Shown piece by piece: positions 14,942 through 48,100 of a DNA stretch of 64,000 nt. The stretch comes from Candidatus Latescibacterota bacterium (GTDB lineage: Bacteria > Latescibacterota > UBA2968 > UBA8231). Position 1 is the first letter of the stretch. Each line of letters starts with the position of its first letter. The translations under genes and the position numbers were made by a program. The notes under the pieces are model-generated. The model saw only the letters and a program-made list of their open reading frames with translations, did no database searches and was not told the origin of the DNA. The DNA is taken from NCBI GenBank assembly GCA_965248265.1, contig CBDFJF010000002.1, positions 384,001 through 448,000 on the forward strand, in the 5' to 3' direction.

Positions 14942-15430
14942 TCAGTGATGATGATGGCCACCGGGCCCGTGAGCGTGTCCGTGGGACAATTCCTCTTCCG
15001 TCGCTGCCCGCACCTCCTCAACGCTGACATCGAAGTGCAGCACCTCACCAGCAAGCGGATGATTGCCGTCGACGGTGACCTCGTCCTCGGCCACGTCGGT
15101 GACGACGATGAGCTGGGTTTGACTATCTTCACCGGAAGCCTCGAATCGCATGCCGGGCTCGATATTGTCCACCGCTCCGAAGTCGCTGCGGGGCACGGTC
15201 TGGATGAGATCCTCATTGACCACACCATAACCATTTTCGGGTTGGATCGTGACGCTGAGTGAATCCCCCGCGCCCTTGCCGGCCAGCTCATTCTCGAGGC
15301 CGGGAATCAGATTGCCGGCGCCGTGCAGATAAACCAGAGGTTCACCATCATCGGATGAGTCGAGGATTTCTCCTGCGTCGTCGGTCAGTTTGTATTGGAT
15401 GGATACGACACAGTTCGCTGCGATCTTCAA
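14942..15430 (-). CDS. slyD: FKBP-type peptidyl-prolyl isomerase SlyD
   Basis: TTG start after AAGGA; YLHGAGNLIPGLE, DGNHPLAG, His-rich tail HGHAHGPGGHHHH. Confidence 0.92.
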   Translation of the reverse strand: MKIAANCVVSIQYKLTDDAGEILDSSDDGEPLVYLHGAGNLIPGLENELAGKGAGDSLSVTIQPENGYGVVNEDLIQTVPRSDFGAVDNIEPGMRFEASGEDSQTQLIVVTDVAEDEVTVDGNHPLAGEVLHFDVSVEEVRAATEEELSHGHAHGPGGHHHH

Positions 15431-15510
15431 GGTTTCTTCCTTTGTGGGAGGCGATTGGATGACGAGCGAGTGTGCGGAATACAGGTCCGTACCGCAACCG
15501 GCCAACCGGT

Positions 15511-15546
15511 AATAAAAGCCTCCCGAAGTCGCTGACTCCGAGAGGC
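15511..15546 (-). terminator. Intrinsic terminator of the 15575..16039 gene
   Basis: Minus strand GCCTCTCGGAGTC-AGC-GACTTCGGGAGGC (13 bp including G-U pairs), then TTTTATT. Confidence 0.75.
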
Positions 15547-15574
15547 CTGTTTTGGTTGGACGCCGGTCGGCGTC

Positions 15575-16039
15575 TCACTCCGCCGAGGCAAGCACCTCGA
15601 CGCCATCCAACACGTCAGTGATAGCGGGAGCCGGGTAGCACAACCGGACGATCCCCGGGAGCTCCTTTGCGTTCGAGCTGGTTGTCATTTCAAAGGCCAA
15701 CTGCAAGCAGGTATGGTACATCGGCATGCCCAGCGCGAAGGGATCGACTTGGGATTCGATCCTGGTGGTGCGAAGCTCGGCCAGGGGCCGCCAGGTTTGC
15801 TCCAAACCGGCCATCAGGTCCAGGAGGGCCTGCCAGCTGGAAAAGCCGTATTCACCGGCAAGCACCTGTTGCGCATGACGCAGTCCAAACGAGTCGGTTG
15901 CCGCAGCAGGCAGATCGGCAATCACGGCCTGCACACGCGCTACGGCCTCGGACTGACCGTCTTTGTGATCGTTGAGAAGCTGGCGAGCCTGCTTTTTGAG
16001 AACATCGAGATTGGGTTGGGGCGGGAGCTGACGTGACAT
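15575..16039 (-). CDS. Hypothetical protein with the N-terminal 'LPxxPNLxxLKKQAxxL...AQxxLAxEYGFxSW' domain often seen ahead of ankyrin/VOC domains
   Basis: MSRQLPPQPNLDVLKKQARQLL...LRHAQQVLAGEYGFSSW; GAAGGAAGG SD; own promoter and terminator. Confidence 0.75.
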   Translation of the reverse strand: MSRQLPPQPNLDVLKKQARQLLNDHKDGQSEAVARVQAVIADLPAAATDSFGLRHAQQVLAGEYGFSSWQALLDLMAGLEQTWRPLAELRTTRIESQVDPFALGMPMYHTCLQLAFEMTTSSNAKELPGIVRLCYPAPAITDVLDGVEVLASAE

Positions 16040-16165
16040 AGAACACCACCTTCCTTCACTAATGCCTGCTGTCCGCTCAGATCAGGCTGAAAGAAGGTCT
16101 ATGTATACTGCAGAAGGTGGGTTTAACCCTTGCCGCGGACTGGAGGCTCCCTTTGAGCACTGCCG
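16040..16165 (-). ncRNA. Candidate structured cis-regulatory leader RNA
   Basis: Complementary segments GUCCGC/GCGGAC, GGGUUAAACCC hairpin, GCCUG/CAGGC, and two anti-SD segments (CCACCUUC and ACCUUCUUUCA) matching UGAAGGAAGGUGG. Confidence 0.55.
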
Positions 16166-16167
16166 TC

Positions 16168-16196
16168 AATGTAGATATCGTGGTGACGGTGGACAA
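16168..16196 (-). promoter_or_regulatory. Sigma70-type promoter for the leader RNA and gene
   Basis: Minus strand TTGTCC-N17-TACATT. Confidence 0.5.
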
Positions 16197-16324
16197 GGTA
16201 AGAGTCAAAGGCTCATGCTCGATTGAGACAGGCAGCGGCGAAAGCAGCTGTGTCCACTGGACTTCCCGACCACCCACTCGATTTGTTATCTTTAACTCCC
16301 TGAGCAAGTTACGCAGGAAATCTG

Positions 16325-18664
16325 ATGGCGAAGAAATCACAAATGACGCAGGTCGGCAAGCGCAAGTTGGAGATCTCCAACCTGGACAAGCCGCTGTGGC
16401 CGGAAGACGGCATCGTCAAGGCCGAGCTGATCGAATACTACCTGAAGATCGCGCCGACAATTCTCCGTCACATCAAGGGCCGGCCGCTGTCCTTTGTGCG
16501 TTTTCCCGACGGCATTCACGGTGAAAGCTTCTTCCAGAAAAACAGGCCCGACTGGGCGCCGGCATGGCTGGAGCACGAGAAGGTCGGCGACGAGGACAGC
16601 GCTCTCGACTACGTCTTTGCCAGCGAAGAGGCCTCGATGGTGTGGATCGGCAATCACGCCTGCATCGAGCTGCATCAGATTCACGCGCGGCGGCCCCACT
16701 TCGACAAACCGGACTACATGGTCTTCGACCTCGATCCTCCGGAGGGATTTCCATTCCCTGACGTGGTCGAACTGGCATTCGAGTTGAAGGATCACGTCGA
16801 ATCCCACGGCTACCACACCTTCGCCAAGACCACGGGTCGCAAGGGTATCCACCTGGTTGTGCCGGTCGAGCCCAAGTGGTCATTCAGCGAGGTGTTTGAG
16901 ACTGCCAAGGCGATCGCCCAACCATTCGTGCGCTCCCACTCGTCTTCGACGACTCTGGCCATAAAGAAGGAGGCGCGAAAAGGGCGGGTTCTCGTTGACG
17001 TTTTCCGCAACCGTCCGGCGCAGACGATCGTCGCTCCCTACAGCGTGCGCGGATCTGCCGGCGCACCGGTGTCGATGCCGTTGACCTGGGAGGATCTGGA
17101 AGGTCTCGAGGACCCGCGCGAGTTCAATCTGCGCACGGTCTTTGACCGGGTCGTCTCCGAGGGCGATCCGTGGGAGGCACTGGCGGCGTACGCCGTGGCC
17201 CTGCACACCGAGCGCAAGGCGCCTGCCCGCAAGCGCGCCAGGACGAGCAAGTCGAGGACCTACAAGACCCCTGAACAACTGGAGGATTACGAGGCCAAGC
17301 GCGCCTTTGACAAGACGCCGGAGCCCAAGGCCGAGCTTGTCGGTGGGGGAGGTAATGCCTTCGTCGTCCACCGGCATCACGCCTCGCGTCTGCACTACGA
17401 TCTGCGCCTGGAAAAGGACGGGGCGCTACAGTCGTGGGCTATCCCGAAGGGTCTGCCACCACGTCCGGGTATCAAGCGCCTGGCGGTGAAGGTCGAGGAC
17501 CACCCGCTGGAGTACCTGACCTTCGAGGGCCGCATCCCCAAAGGGGAATATGGCGCTGGTCCGATGTGGGTCTACGCACACGGACGCTACGAGATCACCA
17601 AGGACAAGCCGGACAGCTTTTACTTTAGGCTGCAAAGCAAGGAACTGACGGCCGAATACCGGTTGATAAACACCAAGGGGAAGGATTGGCTGCTGGAGCG
17701 TCTCGACAGCCCGCAGGTCGACTGGTTGAACGACCAAATCGAGCCGATGCTGGCCGAAAGCCGGGATGAGCCACCTACCGGTGACGAATATGTCTACGAG
17801 GTGAAATGGGACGGCATTCGAGCCATGGTCGCTCTCGAGGAAGGGGAGATCCGCATTCGCACACGCAGCCAGCGCGATGTGACTACCTCATTTCCGGAGT
17901 TGCAGTCGGCGGAGCTCTTCCGCGGCGCCACAGGGCTGTTCGACGGCGAGATCGTCTGCCTGGATGATGCCGGCAAGCCGGTGTTCACGGATGTGATGGG
18001 GAGGCTCCAGGCCAAGGGGGAGCATGGCATCGCGCGATCGATGGGGCGCCATCCCGCGGTCTGTTACCTGTTCGATTGCCTCTACCTGGATGGCCGCCCG
18101 ATCGTCAATGAACCGATGATGCGCCGGCACGAGTGGCTGGAGAGTGCCATCAAGCCGGATGGGCCGTATCGAGCCAGTGAAGTGGTCGAGGAAGGGGGTC
18201 AGGAGCTGTTCGAGGCTGCCAAAACGATCGGGATCGAGGGGATCGTGGCAAAAACGAGGGACGGCTCGTATCTTCCGGGAAGGCGCAGCGACACCTGGCT
18301 CAAGGTCAAGGTGCGCCAGACTATGGAGTGCCAGGTTCTGGGCTATACCAGTGGAAAAGGGGACCGACTGAGCCACTTTGGTGCCCTGCATCTGGGGGTC
18401 TCAAACGGGGAAAACGGGGGCATCAAGTACCTGGGCAAGGTCGGTAACGGCTTCGACGACAAGTTGCTGAAGTCCATTCACTCGCAACTCAAAAAAGTCA
18501 AAGAGACCAAGCGCCAGATCAGCCAGAAACCAGCGGACGACGCTGAGACCACCTGGATCGAGCCCAACCTGATCTGCGAGGTGCAGTTCGCGTCGCTGAC
18601 GAACATGGGAACGCTGCGAGAGGCCGTGTTCCTGAGAATGCGACCTGACCTCGACGAATTCTAA
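16325..18664 (+). CDS. ligD: NHEJ DNA ligase D (POL-PE-LIG domain order)
   Basis: Primase-polymerase motifs SNLDKPLWP, VFDLDP, KTTGRKGIH; phosphoesterase HHASRLHYDLRLE; ligase EVKWDG, EGIVAK, WLKVK. Confidence 0.95.
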   Translation: MAKKSQMTQVGKRKLEISNLDKPLWPEDGIVKAELIEYYLKIAPTILRHIKGRPLSFVRFPDGIHGESFFQKNRPDWAPAWLEHEKVGDEDSALDYVFASEEASMVWIGNHACIELHQIHARRPHFDKPDYMVFDLDPPEGFPFPDVVELAFELKDHVESHGYHTFAKTTGRKGIHLVVPVEPKWSFSEVFETAKAIAQPFVRSHSSSTTLAIKKEARKGRVLVDVFRNRPAQTIVAPYSVRGSAGAPVSMPLTWEDLEGLEDPREFNLRTVFDRVVSEGDPWEALAAYAVALHTERKAPARKRARTSKSRTYKTPEQLEDYEAKRAFDKTPEPKAELVGGGGNAFVVHRHHASRLHYDLRLEKDGALQSWAIPKGLPPRPGIKRLAVKVEDHPLEYLTFEGRIPKGEYGAGPMWVYAHGRYEITKDKPDSFYFRLQSKELTAEYRLINTKGKDWLLERLDSPQVDWLNDQIEPMLAESRDEPPTGDEYVYEVKWDGIRAMVALEEGEIRIRTRSQRDVTTSFPELQSAELFRGATGLFDGEIVCLDDAGKPVFTDVMGRLQAKGEHGIARSMGRHPAVCYLFDCLYLDGRPIVNEPMMRRHEWLESAIKPDGPYRASEVVEEGGQELFEAAKTIGIEGIVAKTRDGSYLPGRRSDTWLKVKVRQTMECQVLGYTSGKGDRLSHFGALHLGVSNGENGGIKYLGKVGNGFDDKLLKSIHSQLKKVKETKRQISQKPADDAETTWIEPNLICEVQFASLTNMGTLREAVFLRMRPDLDEF

Positions 18665-47500: not shown

Positions 47501-48100
47501 ATGGGAGCTGATCCGAACAAAGTCCGCGTCAGCGGCGAAAACTCATTCTTGCGCCTGGGCGAGTCGGAGGACGGCGATCCGACGGTGGAGATGAGCCACT
47601 GGCGGGTGGTGGCATCCCCCAAGGGAGTCGGACACATCCTCTTTGCCAAGAGCGTCCTGTCGAAGGGCGAGCCGCGGATCTATTCAGACAACTTCGCTCT
47701 GGCACGTTGGCTCCAGGAAGGCGTCCAGGCTTCCATGCGCGACACCTATTCCGGCGACATCCCCATCATCGATGCCGAATTCTCGAAAAGCGGTGATATG
47801 TTGACCTGTTGGGTCGAACGCGTCGCCTCGCGGGATGAGGAGATCGTCCTGGTCTGGTCAGACTTCATGGCACCAGTCCAGGTCGCCAATCAGCCGTTCG
47901 ACAATCCCGAGCAGCCCCACGGCGTCTACAGCCTGTTGATTCCCGCCCGGCGGGCACAACTGACCATCAATGGCAACACCGCTCCGGGGCGCGTCCTGTC
48001 CAGAGACCTGTTCGGCAGGGAGGGCACCAGCTGCTGTCTGGCCCTTTCCGAGACCTGGACGATTCCGCCCGATCACGAATGGGCGCAGGATGCGCTATAG
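47501..48100 (+). CDS. Conserved hypothetical protein
   Basis: AAGGAG RBS; lies within the operon; GENSF, SHWRV, LSETW. Confidence 0.7.
   Translation: MGADPNKVRVSGENSFLRLGESEDGDPTVEMSHWRVVASPKGVGHILFAKSVLSKGEPRIYSDNFALARWLQEGVQASMRDTYSGDIPIIDAEFSKSGDMLTCWVERVASRDEEIVLVWSDFMAPVQVANQPFDNPEQPHGVYSLLIPARRAQLTINGNTAPGRVLSRDLFGREGTSCCLALSETWTIPPDHEWAQDAL

Follow-up and report, generated by a model that had tools for sequence, protein, structure and literature searches.

The minus strand of the window, a 64,000-nt stretch of a Candidatus Latescibacterota bacterium genome (contig CBDFJF010000002.1, positions 384,001–448,000), contains a compact unit at 15511–16196 which, from its sequence, reads as a promoter, a leader RNA of about 120 nt, an open reading frame (ORF) of 154 codons and a terminator. 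The question raised by this locus is what kind of RNA the leader is and what it could control. The promoter TTGTCC-N17-TACATT, the pairings within the leader and the terminator were all found on the minus strand where the initial annotation had placed them. On comparative evidence, the leader is a member of a large, predicted family of cis-acting translational control RNAs, not catalogued in Rfam 15 and perhaps overlapping in part with the tabulated Rhodopirellula-1 motif (PMC2864571, Table 1). The genes behind these leaders mostly encode proteins that begin with the same uncharacterised domain, hereafter the N-domain.

The leader of the window (16040–16162, the 5′ end being placed from the promoter position) is one of several related copies. 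A comparison with its own 7.3-Mb genome using nhmmer revealed homologous leaders directly upstream of N-domain paralogues that had been found independently. Two covariance models were used, R1 built from five in-genome copies and R2 built from 94 cross-phylum copies, and the window leader (16034–16168) scores 128.3 bits with R1 and 117.7 bits with R2. According to R1, five copies in the window's genome are complete; in addition, there is a degenerate copy with no gene behind it and a copy of the 3′ half. Of 151 related genomes, 72 contain full-length R1 matches, the largest number in one genome being 15; the window's genome and its relatives together supplied 76 leader copies. In a sample of 151 genomes of the window's phylum, R2 detects the leader in 58, and one genome may have as many as 16 copies. 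In another 151 genomes, drawn from the phylum of a carrier labelled as acidobacterial, it detects the leader in 13, each with a single copy, so that the two lineages show a marked difference in copy number. The GC-content of the leader varies from 44 to 79% across carriers, and the near-invariant junction bases are kept across about ten phylum-level labels.

The initial annotation could not assign the leader to a named RNA family, and a comparison with Rfam 15 agrees with this. In the cmscan search of window positions 15000–17000 (E ≤ 10), the only matches were two on the plus strand, both weak and unrelated, and at E ≤ 1 nothing was matched at the leader positions of 20 diverse carrier loci. 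A description of this RNA was not found in literature searches; term look-ups confined to the main texts of Weinberg 2017 (PMC5737381), Narunsky 2024 (PMC11109978) and a 2026 bioRxiv preprint (10.64898/2026.10.21.760802) did not return it either.

Some matches are incomplete. A degenerate leader of 39.6 bits (locus L016, G000:C2:1565239-1565376, plus strand) has both its GUCCGC and GCGGAC strands mutated and is followed by no N-domain gene. At loci L003/L017 (G000:C1:1765540-1765585, plus strand), only the 3′ half is present, comprising the segment complementary to the Shine–Dalgarno sequence (anti-SD), the P3 hairpin with its GCGGAC loop and the Shine–Dalgarno sequence (SD) itself; the 5′ pseudoknot domain is missing though its docking partner GCGGAC is kept. 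The paralogue behind this half-leader is a protein of 412 aa with an apparent GTG start, consisting of the N-domain and uncharacterised cargo. A second R2 match in the window, at 47952–48084 (13 bits, E 0.043), has no N-domain gene nearby and was taken as a chance match.

The fold of the leader is defined by four helices and two pseudoknots, PK1 and PK2, all of them backed by covariation in the leader alignments. The 5′ half is an H-type pseudoknot. It starts with the P1 hairpin (16146–16158), in which GCUC (16158–16155) pairs with GAGC (16149–16146) around the loop A-AAGG. The last four bases of this loop, AAGG (16150–16153), form PK1 with the four bases directly 3′ of P2, CCUU (16114–16117). 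Between the PK1 strands lie P2 and the near-invariant unpaired bases ..YCCA-GUCCGC-GGAAA... The P2 hairpin, GGGU-UAA-ACCC (GGGUUAAACCC, 16119–16129), had been noticed in the initial annotation together with CCACCUUC as a second anti-SD; the hairpin is a genuine covarying helix, and the CCUU inside CCACCUUC proved to be the 3′ strand of PK1 instead. In the 3′ half, a long helix, P4, is capped by P3. The 5′ strand of P4 (16088–16103) consists of CAUAG, complementary to the start region, and the anti-SD ACCUUCUUUCA (16098–16088), and its 3′ strand (16037–16058) includes the SD region UGAAGGAAGGU (16058–16048) and CUAUG with the start codon (16041–16037); both strands were defined by folding and duplex tests. 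The P3 hairpin (16064–16087) pairs GCCUG (16087–16083) with CAGGC (16068–16064), so that the anti-SD helix continued by GCCUG/CAGGC is present as originally described. The loop of P3 exposes GCGGAC (16076–16071), which docks on the 5′ half by 6 bp with GUCCGC (16135–16140) to form PK2.

The pairing was tested against shuffled and shifted alignments. The 76 leaders were aligned to R1, and a second set of 94 leaders spans phyla. Among the 75 distinct related leaders, 83.9% of the cells are paired with both pseudoknots included, and 30 of the 34 pairs show changes on both sides. None of 500 shuffles reached any of five covariation measures, and sliding the partners by one to three columns left only 32–52% of the cells paired. 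Since PK1 and PK2 were absent from the model used for aligning, their pairing represents an independent test. PK2 is paired in 95–97% of the cells, with two-sided changes at five of its six pairs in the 76 leaders and at all six in the 94. For the cross-phylum set, the share of paired cells is 95.4% for PK2, 90.8% for PK1, 99.7% for P2 and 98.5% for P3. The PK1 strands occur in many compensated combinations: AAGG/CCUU (17), GAGG/CCUC (10), CAGG/CCUG (8), CGGG/CCCG (4) and AGGG/CCCU (3), with GGGG/CCCC, UGGG/CCCA, CCGG/CCGG and GAGA/UCUC in addition. Individual helix positions behave likewise in the 94 sequences: one pair of P1 is UA in 36, GC in 30 and CG in 3, the closing pair of P2 is CG in 74, UA in 12 and AU in 4, and one pair of P3 is UA in 46, CG in 35 and UG in 13. 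Hence, the upstream regions of homologous genes share both sequence and covarying structure, as the initial annotation had proposed to check.

A mutual-information scan of the 94 leaders revealed no extra long-range helix and no competing helix; the highest-scoring pairs outside the helices are neighbouring columns, i.e., alignment slips. Thus, the fold corresponds to a single closed state, and a two-state switch is not demonstrated. For this leader, earlier termed 'switch-like', no mutually exclusive helix was found in that scan. The same applies to GUCCGC/GCGGAC, for which a pseudoknot or an alternative helix had been suggested: the pseudoknot covaries, and it coexists with all other helices. 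As all helices are mutually compatible, the folded leader can be assumed to be a closed, non-translatable state. Two further pairings seen by eye, GGAAAGGG as an anti-anti-SD (the window has GGCAAGGG) and the 3′ strand of P1 as a partner of the anti-SD, were dropped because neither is kept across copies.

Burial of the ribosome binding site is a general feature of the family. In a per-sequence test, the anti-SD:SD duplex reaches −12 kcal/mol or lower in 141 of 153 leaders, in which the SD is thus sequestered, and the median energy is −15.5 kcal/mol compared with −7.2 kcal/mol for shuffled 5′ tracts. P4 is paired in only 60–65% of the alignment cells, because its pyrimidine and purine tracts slip in register. 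The SD helix often extends to the start codon, and in the window CAUAG pairs with CUAUG; P4b, P4 and P3 make up a near-continuous duplex of about 21 bp. In the window, the 63-nt hairpin of anti-SD, P3 and SD has a folding energy of −23.2 kcal/mol (z −2.55; 1 of 200 shuffles equal). The leader as a whole is unremarkable by energy (z −1.28; 18 of 200 shuffles equal), and with such weak thermodynamics the case for the leader rests on comparison and not on the single sequence. An RNA thermometer would be a simple SD-masking hairpin of weak pairs lacking a conserved distal domain, and the leader does not fit this description: its helix lies at about −15 to −23 kcal/mol, and its 5′ domain with two pseudoknots is conserved.

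The distribution of the leader follows that of the N-domain. A six-frame scan of the window's genome with a hidden Markov model (HMM) detected exactly six N-domain genes, and all six have the leader, one of them its 3′ half only. Two larger sets of 80 loci each were selected for their likeness to leader-linked genes or to closely related proteins of a single type. In the first, taken from named genome records and picked by the N-domain with the six-row alignment, 79 of 80 loci carry a full-length leader on the gene strand, and for the single exception only 50 nt of upstream sequence are present. The titles of these records name Acidobacteriota groups, Latescibacterota, Gemmatimonadota, Poribacteria, Verrucomicrobiota, Chloroflexota, Planctomycetota, Dormiibacterota, Baltobacteraceae and Proteobacteria. 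In the second, metagenomic set, picked with an actinobacterial-type ankyrin protein with a double N-domain, the leader was found at 71 of 80 loci, with a GC-content of up to 79%; the other nine gave no leader even with the search filters off. Two of these nine have no upstream sequence, and most of the others have truncated or altered N-termini or lie close behind another gene. A leader of the type CCGCGG.AAGGG...CCCACC, named in the initial annotation as accompanying such genes, is the one found in both sets.

The association is seen from the side of the RNA as well. Five genomes of other phyla contain eight strong domain matches, all with the leader, and eight leaders (E ≤ 1e-6), all with the domain. 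Among the leaders collected by RNA search, the N-domain is encoded within 600 nt downstream in 70 of 76; the other six precede three frameshifted N-domain starts, one protein that by eye is FliG-like, one ankyrin-only ORF and one unclear sequence. These comparative data support the proposal of a portable module in which the RNA and the domain together control interchangeable cargo. Across the 151 relatives, which are not independent of one another, so that the counts are descriptive, 68 genomes have both RNA and domain, 4 the RNA only, 8 the domain only and 71 neither. RNA without the domain is rare and the domain persists without the RNA, an asymmetry that points to dependence of the RNA on the domain. 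The four RNA-only genomes comprise two with weak matches, one with decaying copies (G016) and one with intact leaders (G119). G016 was rejected as a genome with leader and without domain, since its copies stand beside broken, frameshifted N-domain starts.

Two groups of loci deviate from the simple order of leader and N-domain. At L020, L022, L033, L039 and L262, the N-domain starts end after 3–20 codons owing to a frameshift, a stop or a lost ATG, and these could be pseudogenes or draft-assembly errors. At the four closely similar loci L101, L102, L107 and L112, the ORF directly behind the leader is SnoaL-like/DUF4440 (330 aa), and the N-domain gene, which has the same orientation and no leader of its own, comes about 1 kb later. 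By analogy, this arrangement resembles operons whose regulator is not the first gene.

The N-domain comprises about 80 helical residues with the signature MSxxLPxxPNLxxLKKQAK ... AQxVxAREYGFxSW, and no Pfam or NCBIfam family covers it. The third codon positions of its gene vary (0.06–0.9 bits) compared with up to 2 bits at the first and second positions; therefore, the conservation of MSxxLPxxPNL..LKKQAK is a feature of the protein and not of the RNA. With the domain profile, 9,479 cluster representatives are matched at E ≤ 0.001, of which 4,719 remain at the stricter E ≤ 1e-10. In 147 of the best 150 representatives, the domain begins within the first 19 residues, and it often occurs in two or three tandem copies. 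The initial annotation regarded it as a basic helical domain. This is correct for the family, with a median net charge of +3, a median isoelectric point (pI) of 9.5 and basic character in 85% of 131 sequences, and the AlphaFold2 model features five helices with a mean predicted local distance difference test score (pLDDT) of 77.9; it does not hold for the charge of the window copy, which is discussed below. A sequence-profile search of the PDB matched only de novo designed proteins (E ≥ 0.08), and a search of the ESM Atlas only clusters of 'hypothetical protein' with scores below 0.9.

The cargo behind the N-domain is diverse. It includes FliM-like (5 of 22 scanned), FliG-like, sigma-54 AAA+, ankyrin, TPR, glyoxalase, APH kinase and BFN nuclease parts, to which a wider protein search adds Clp_N and LRR; the variety of C-termini mentioned earlier (ankyrin, glyoxalase/VOC and Clp) was thus recovered. 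This set has no metabolic theme, and no single metabolite or pathway is indicated by it. The proteins at L029 (345 aa) and L037 consist of the N-domain followed by a sigma-54 AAA+ core and lid without a C-terminal DNA-binding domain; here, the N-domain stands where such proteins usually have a receiver or sensor domain. A candidate N-domain copy at L006 was rejected as a transposase-like ORF.

The protein of the window (ORF 15575–16039, start ATG 16039–16037) belongs to the FliM-like group. The N-domain takes up residues 1 to about 80 (15800–16039; HMM match 8e-30), and residues 74–153 (15581–15820) are 48% identical to residues 267–347 of a 352-aa FliM-like homologue at L018, roughly the final 80 residues of its FliM-like middle domain, with weak matches to the true FliM genes of the genome. 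Compared with this homologue, the window protein lacks about 190 intervening residues, in frame. Judging from the alignment, it is an internally deleted FliM-like fusion, and its gene, previously described as an 'orphan' domain gene, has a recognisable cargo remnant; it may be a decaying paralogue.

What the leader responds to can be approached from this combination of features. We favour, tentatively and with somewhat less than even confidence, the N-domain encoded directly behind the leader as the effector, acting by negative feedback on translation. The folded leader is the closed state, in which the SD, and in the window also the AUG, is buried in P4. Binding of the effector to the conserved 5′ domain and the PK2 junction would then set how tightly the ribosome binding site is closed, and with the usually basic N-domain as this effector, the result would be feedback in the style of ribosomal-protein leaders. 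If so, the leader and the N-domain would make up a portable, self-limiting cassette placed before varied cargo. Feedback is favoured because the RNA tracks the domain and not the cargo or a pathway, because the domain is strictly N-terminal and usually basic, because the RNA seldom survives without the domain and the domain survives without the RNA, and because the two-gene loci are reminiscent of operons whose autoregulator lies further downstream. A more specific form of the idea, which we consider rather unlikely, is that the N-domain, always the first segment to emerge from the ribosome, folds and binds in cis to the mRNA being translated, locking its leader in the closed, pseudoknotted state. 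The output per transcript would then be limited to a small, fixed burst of protein, and the cassette would have been joined to dozens of unrelated cargo domains in at least ten phyla.

Several observations weigh against feedback by the N-domain. The fractions of 79/80 and 71/80 may overstate the coupling for the domain family as a whole, given how both sets were chosen. The window's own N-domain is acidic (net charge −2, pI 5.5), and a Foldseek search of the domain model against the PDB gave nothing at E ≤ 0.001, with no nucleic-acid-binding structure matched. One leader is directly followed by the ankyrin-only ORF. The genome G119, 88% complete, has two intact leaders (90 and 79 bits; L087 and L181) and no detected N-domain. 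The closed helix is already very stable without an effector (−23 kcal/mol), which is hard to square with translation, and no alternative helix for a switch emerged from the scan of the 94 leaders. Finally, the conservation of unpaired bases across phyla together with a double-pseudoknot fold is typical of metabolite aptamers. As to the two leaders of G119, one lies before a 21-codon remnant and the other before a protein that by eye is FliG-like and keeps the first 12 residues of the domain.

The main alternative is a new riboswitch class, which is possible, if doubtful. In such a case, the double-pseudoknot 5′ domain and the P3 loop would bind a small molecule or an ion, stabilising or loosening the helix that buries the ribosome binding site, and the N-domain would handle the same signal. 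The near-invariant junction bases and the compact fold, retained over about ten phylum-level labels and a GC-content of 44–79%, are consistent with an aptamer, and the expression platform is built into the fold, with the SD paired in P4. The intact leaders of G119 and the leaders before first genes that have no N-domain also suit a ligand-sensing RNA, as does the position of the N-domain, which sits where an input domain would be expected, ahead of the sigma-54 AAA+ core and the FliM-like and FliG-like parts. However, the regulated genes have only the domain in common and no pathway, hardly any leader stands before an unrelated gene (the domain follows 70 of 76, and the remainder are mostly broken copies), the gene set points to no candidate ligand and the mutual-information scan of the 94 leaders disclosed no alternative pairing. 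The stability of the helix and the lack of a conserved alternative pairing fit neither feedback by the N-domain nor a riboswitch well.

The same stability makes an activating factor plausible, since the closed helix seems too stable to open unaided. A different trans factor, with the N-domain genes as its regulon, could switch translation on by processing or unwinding P4. Candidates would be RNase III, with the P4–P3 stack of roughly 20 bp as its target, a small RNA or a global RNA-binding protein, and the near-continuous P4b/P4/P3 duplex of about 21 bp is in line with this. We consider this improbable: no candidate factor was found, the attachment of the RNA to one domain across phyla would be left unexplained and the conserved 5′ domain would be explained no better than by the other readings. 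Less probable again is a constitutive structured element that senses nothing, dampens translation or stabilises the mRNA and is passed on together with the gene's 5′ end. The coexistence of all helices without a detectable switch helix agrees with this, and so does the joint loss of the leader and the N-terminus at several loci; yet P4 alone would suffice for such a role, whereas the 5′ domain, two covarying pseudoknots and invariant unpaired bases are strongly selected in distant phyla. A self-cleaving ribozyme or ribozyme-riboswitch in the 5′ untranslated region can scarcely be credited, as the double-pseudoknot fold and invariant bases give only a general likeness, no computed result points to cleavage, no Rfam ribozyme family matches and the constant link to the SD and start codon is in keeping with control of translation.

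Some known RNAs resemble the leader in part. The operators of the E. coli rpsO gene, bound by S15, and of the rpmI-rplT operon, bound by L20, are pseudoknotted autoregulatory leaders that exert negative feedback on translation initiation. As in these systems, the leader studied here lies upstream of the gene or operon encoding its presumed binder, which is an association only, and its pseudoknots engage the ribosome binding region. Unlike them, its partner would be a domain common to thousands of unrelated proteins and not one essential protein, the copies number several per genome (up to 16) and no rRNA-like mimicry was seen, the nhmmer search of the genome having matched only leaders. The ZTP (pfl) riboswitch consists of two subdomains with a variable linker and a long-range pseudoknot, adjacent to an expression platform. 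Its likeness to the leader concerns architecture only, namely the two subdomains joined by a long-range pseudoknot; there is no sequence or model match, the helices and conserved bases are others, the SD helix is within the fold and the genes are non-metabolic. The yjdF and raiA motifs, orphan riboswitch candidates, are complex leaders, nearly all of which precede members of one gene family. The present leader, too, is conserved and complex, stands before one family and has an effector that is not evident from the genes, but it is tied to an N-terminal domain with interchangeable cargo and has no Rfam entry. Thus, the nearest relatives are ribosomal-protein autoregulatory leaders by mechanism and ZTP by architecture, and the leader is a member of neither.

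Among tabulated motifs, Rhodopirellula-1 deserves attention: Table 1 of Weinberg et al. 2010 (PMC2864571) lists it as possibly cis-regulatory, from Proteobacteria and Planctomycetes, without an Rfam accession and rated '?' as an RNA. As far as this entry allows a comparison, the two are alike in that Pirellulaceae and Proteobacteria are among the record titles of loci carrying the present RNA, and they differ, by the same entry, in the abundant covariation and far wider range seen here. The Solibacter-1 motif is also included in that table, and going by the table, either motif could overlap the leader family in part.

An RNA tied to a protein domain and not to a whole gene or pathway is unusual. 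If confirmed and unpublished, the family would add a large double-pseudoknot class to the bacterial cis-regulators and offer a first clue to the function of the uncharacterised N-domain family, which has thousands of cluster representatives. A self-limiting, transferable expression cassette, if true, would also be of interest for synthetic biology.

The leaders are generally preceded by a promoter at a fixed distance. Using the consensus TTGACA-N16-18-TATAAT, the end of the best match lies between −3 and +4 relative to the model start in 117 of 149 distinct leaders, and 71 of the 149 score at least 9/12 compared with 3 of 146 control windows taken 100 nt further upstream. This constant spacing suggests that transcription starts a few bases ahead of P1. 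The window promoter, which by its sequence is sigma-70-like, consists of the −35-like hexamer TTGTCC (16191–16196) and, after a 17-nt spacer, the −10-like hexamer TACATT (16168–16173), both read in the sequence. As the best match to the consensus it scores only 8/12, yet it ends at +1 of the model start, which is the modal position among the 149 leaders.

The neighbouring genes have no evident tie to the unit. The divergent gene at 16325–18664 (plus strand) encodes a three-domain LigD with primase-polymerase, phosphoesterase and ligase parts, and the gene at 14942–15505 (minus strand) encodes an FKBP-type isomerase with a His-rich tail.

A simple consensus scan of the window reported neither a promoter nor a terminator. 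The terminator is an intrinsic-terminator-like hairpin of 15 bp followed by UUUUAUU (15511–15548, minus strand); the 81-nt stretch containing it folds at −39.3 kcal/mol (z −4.87), a value equalled by none of 200 shuffles. Between the stop codon and this hairpin lies a small second GC-rich hairpin, GACGCC-GACC-GGCGUC (15559–15574, minus strand).

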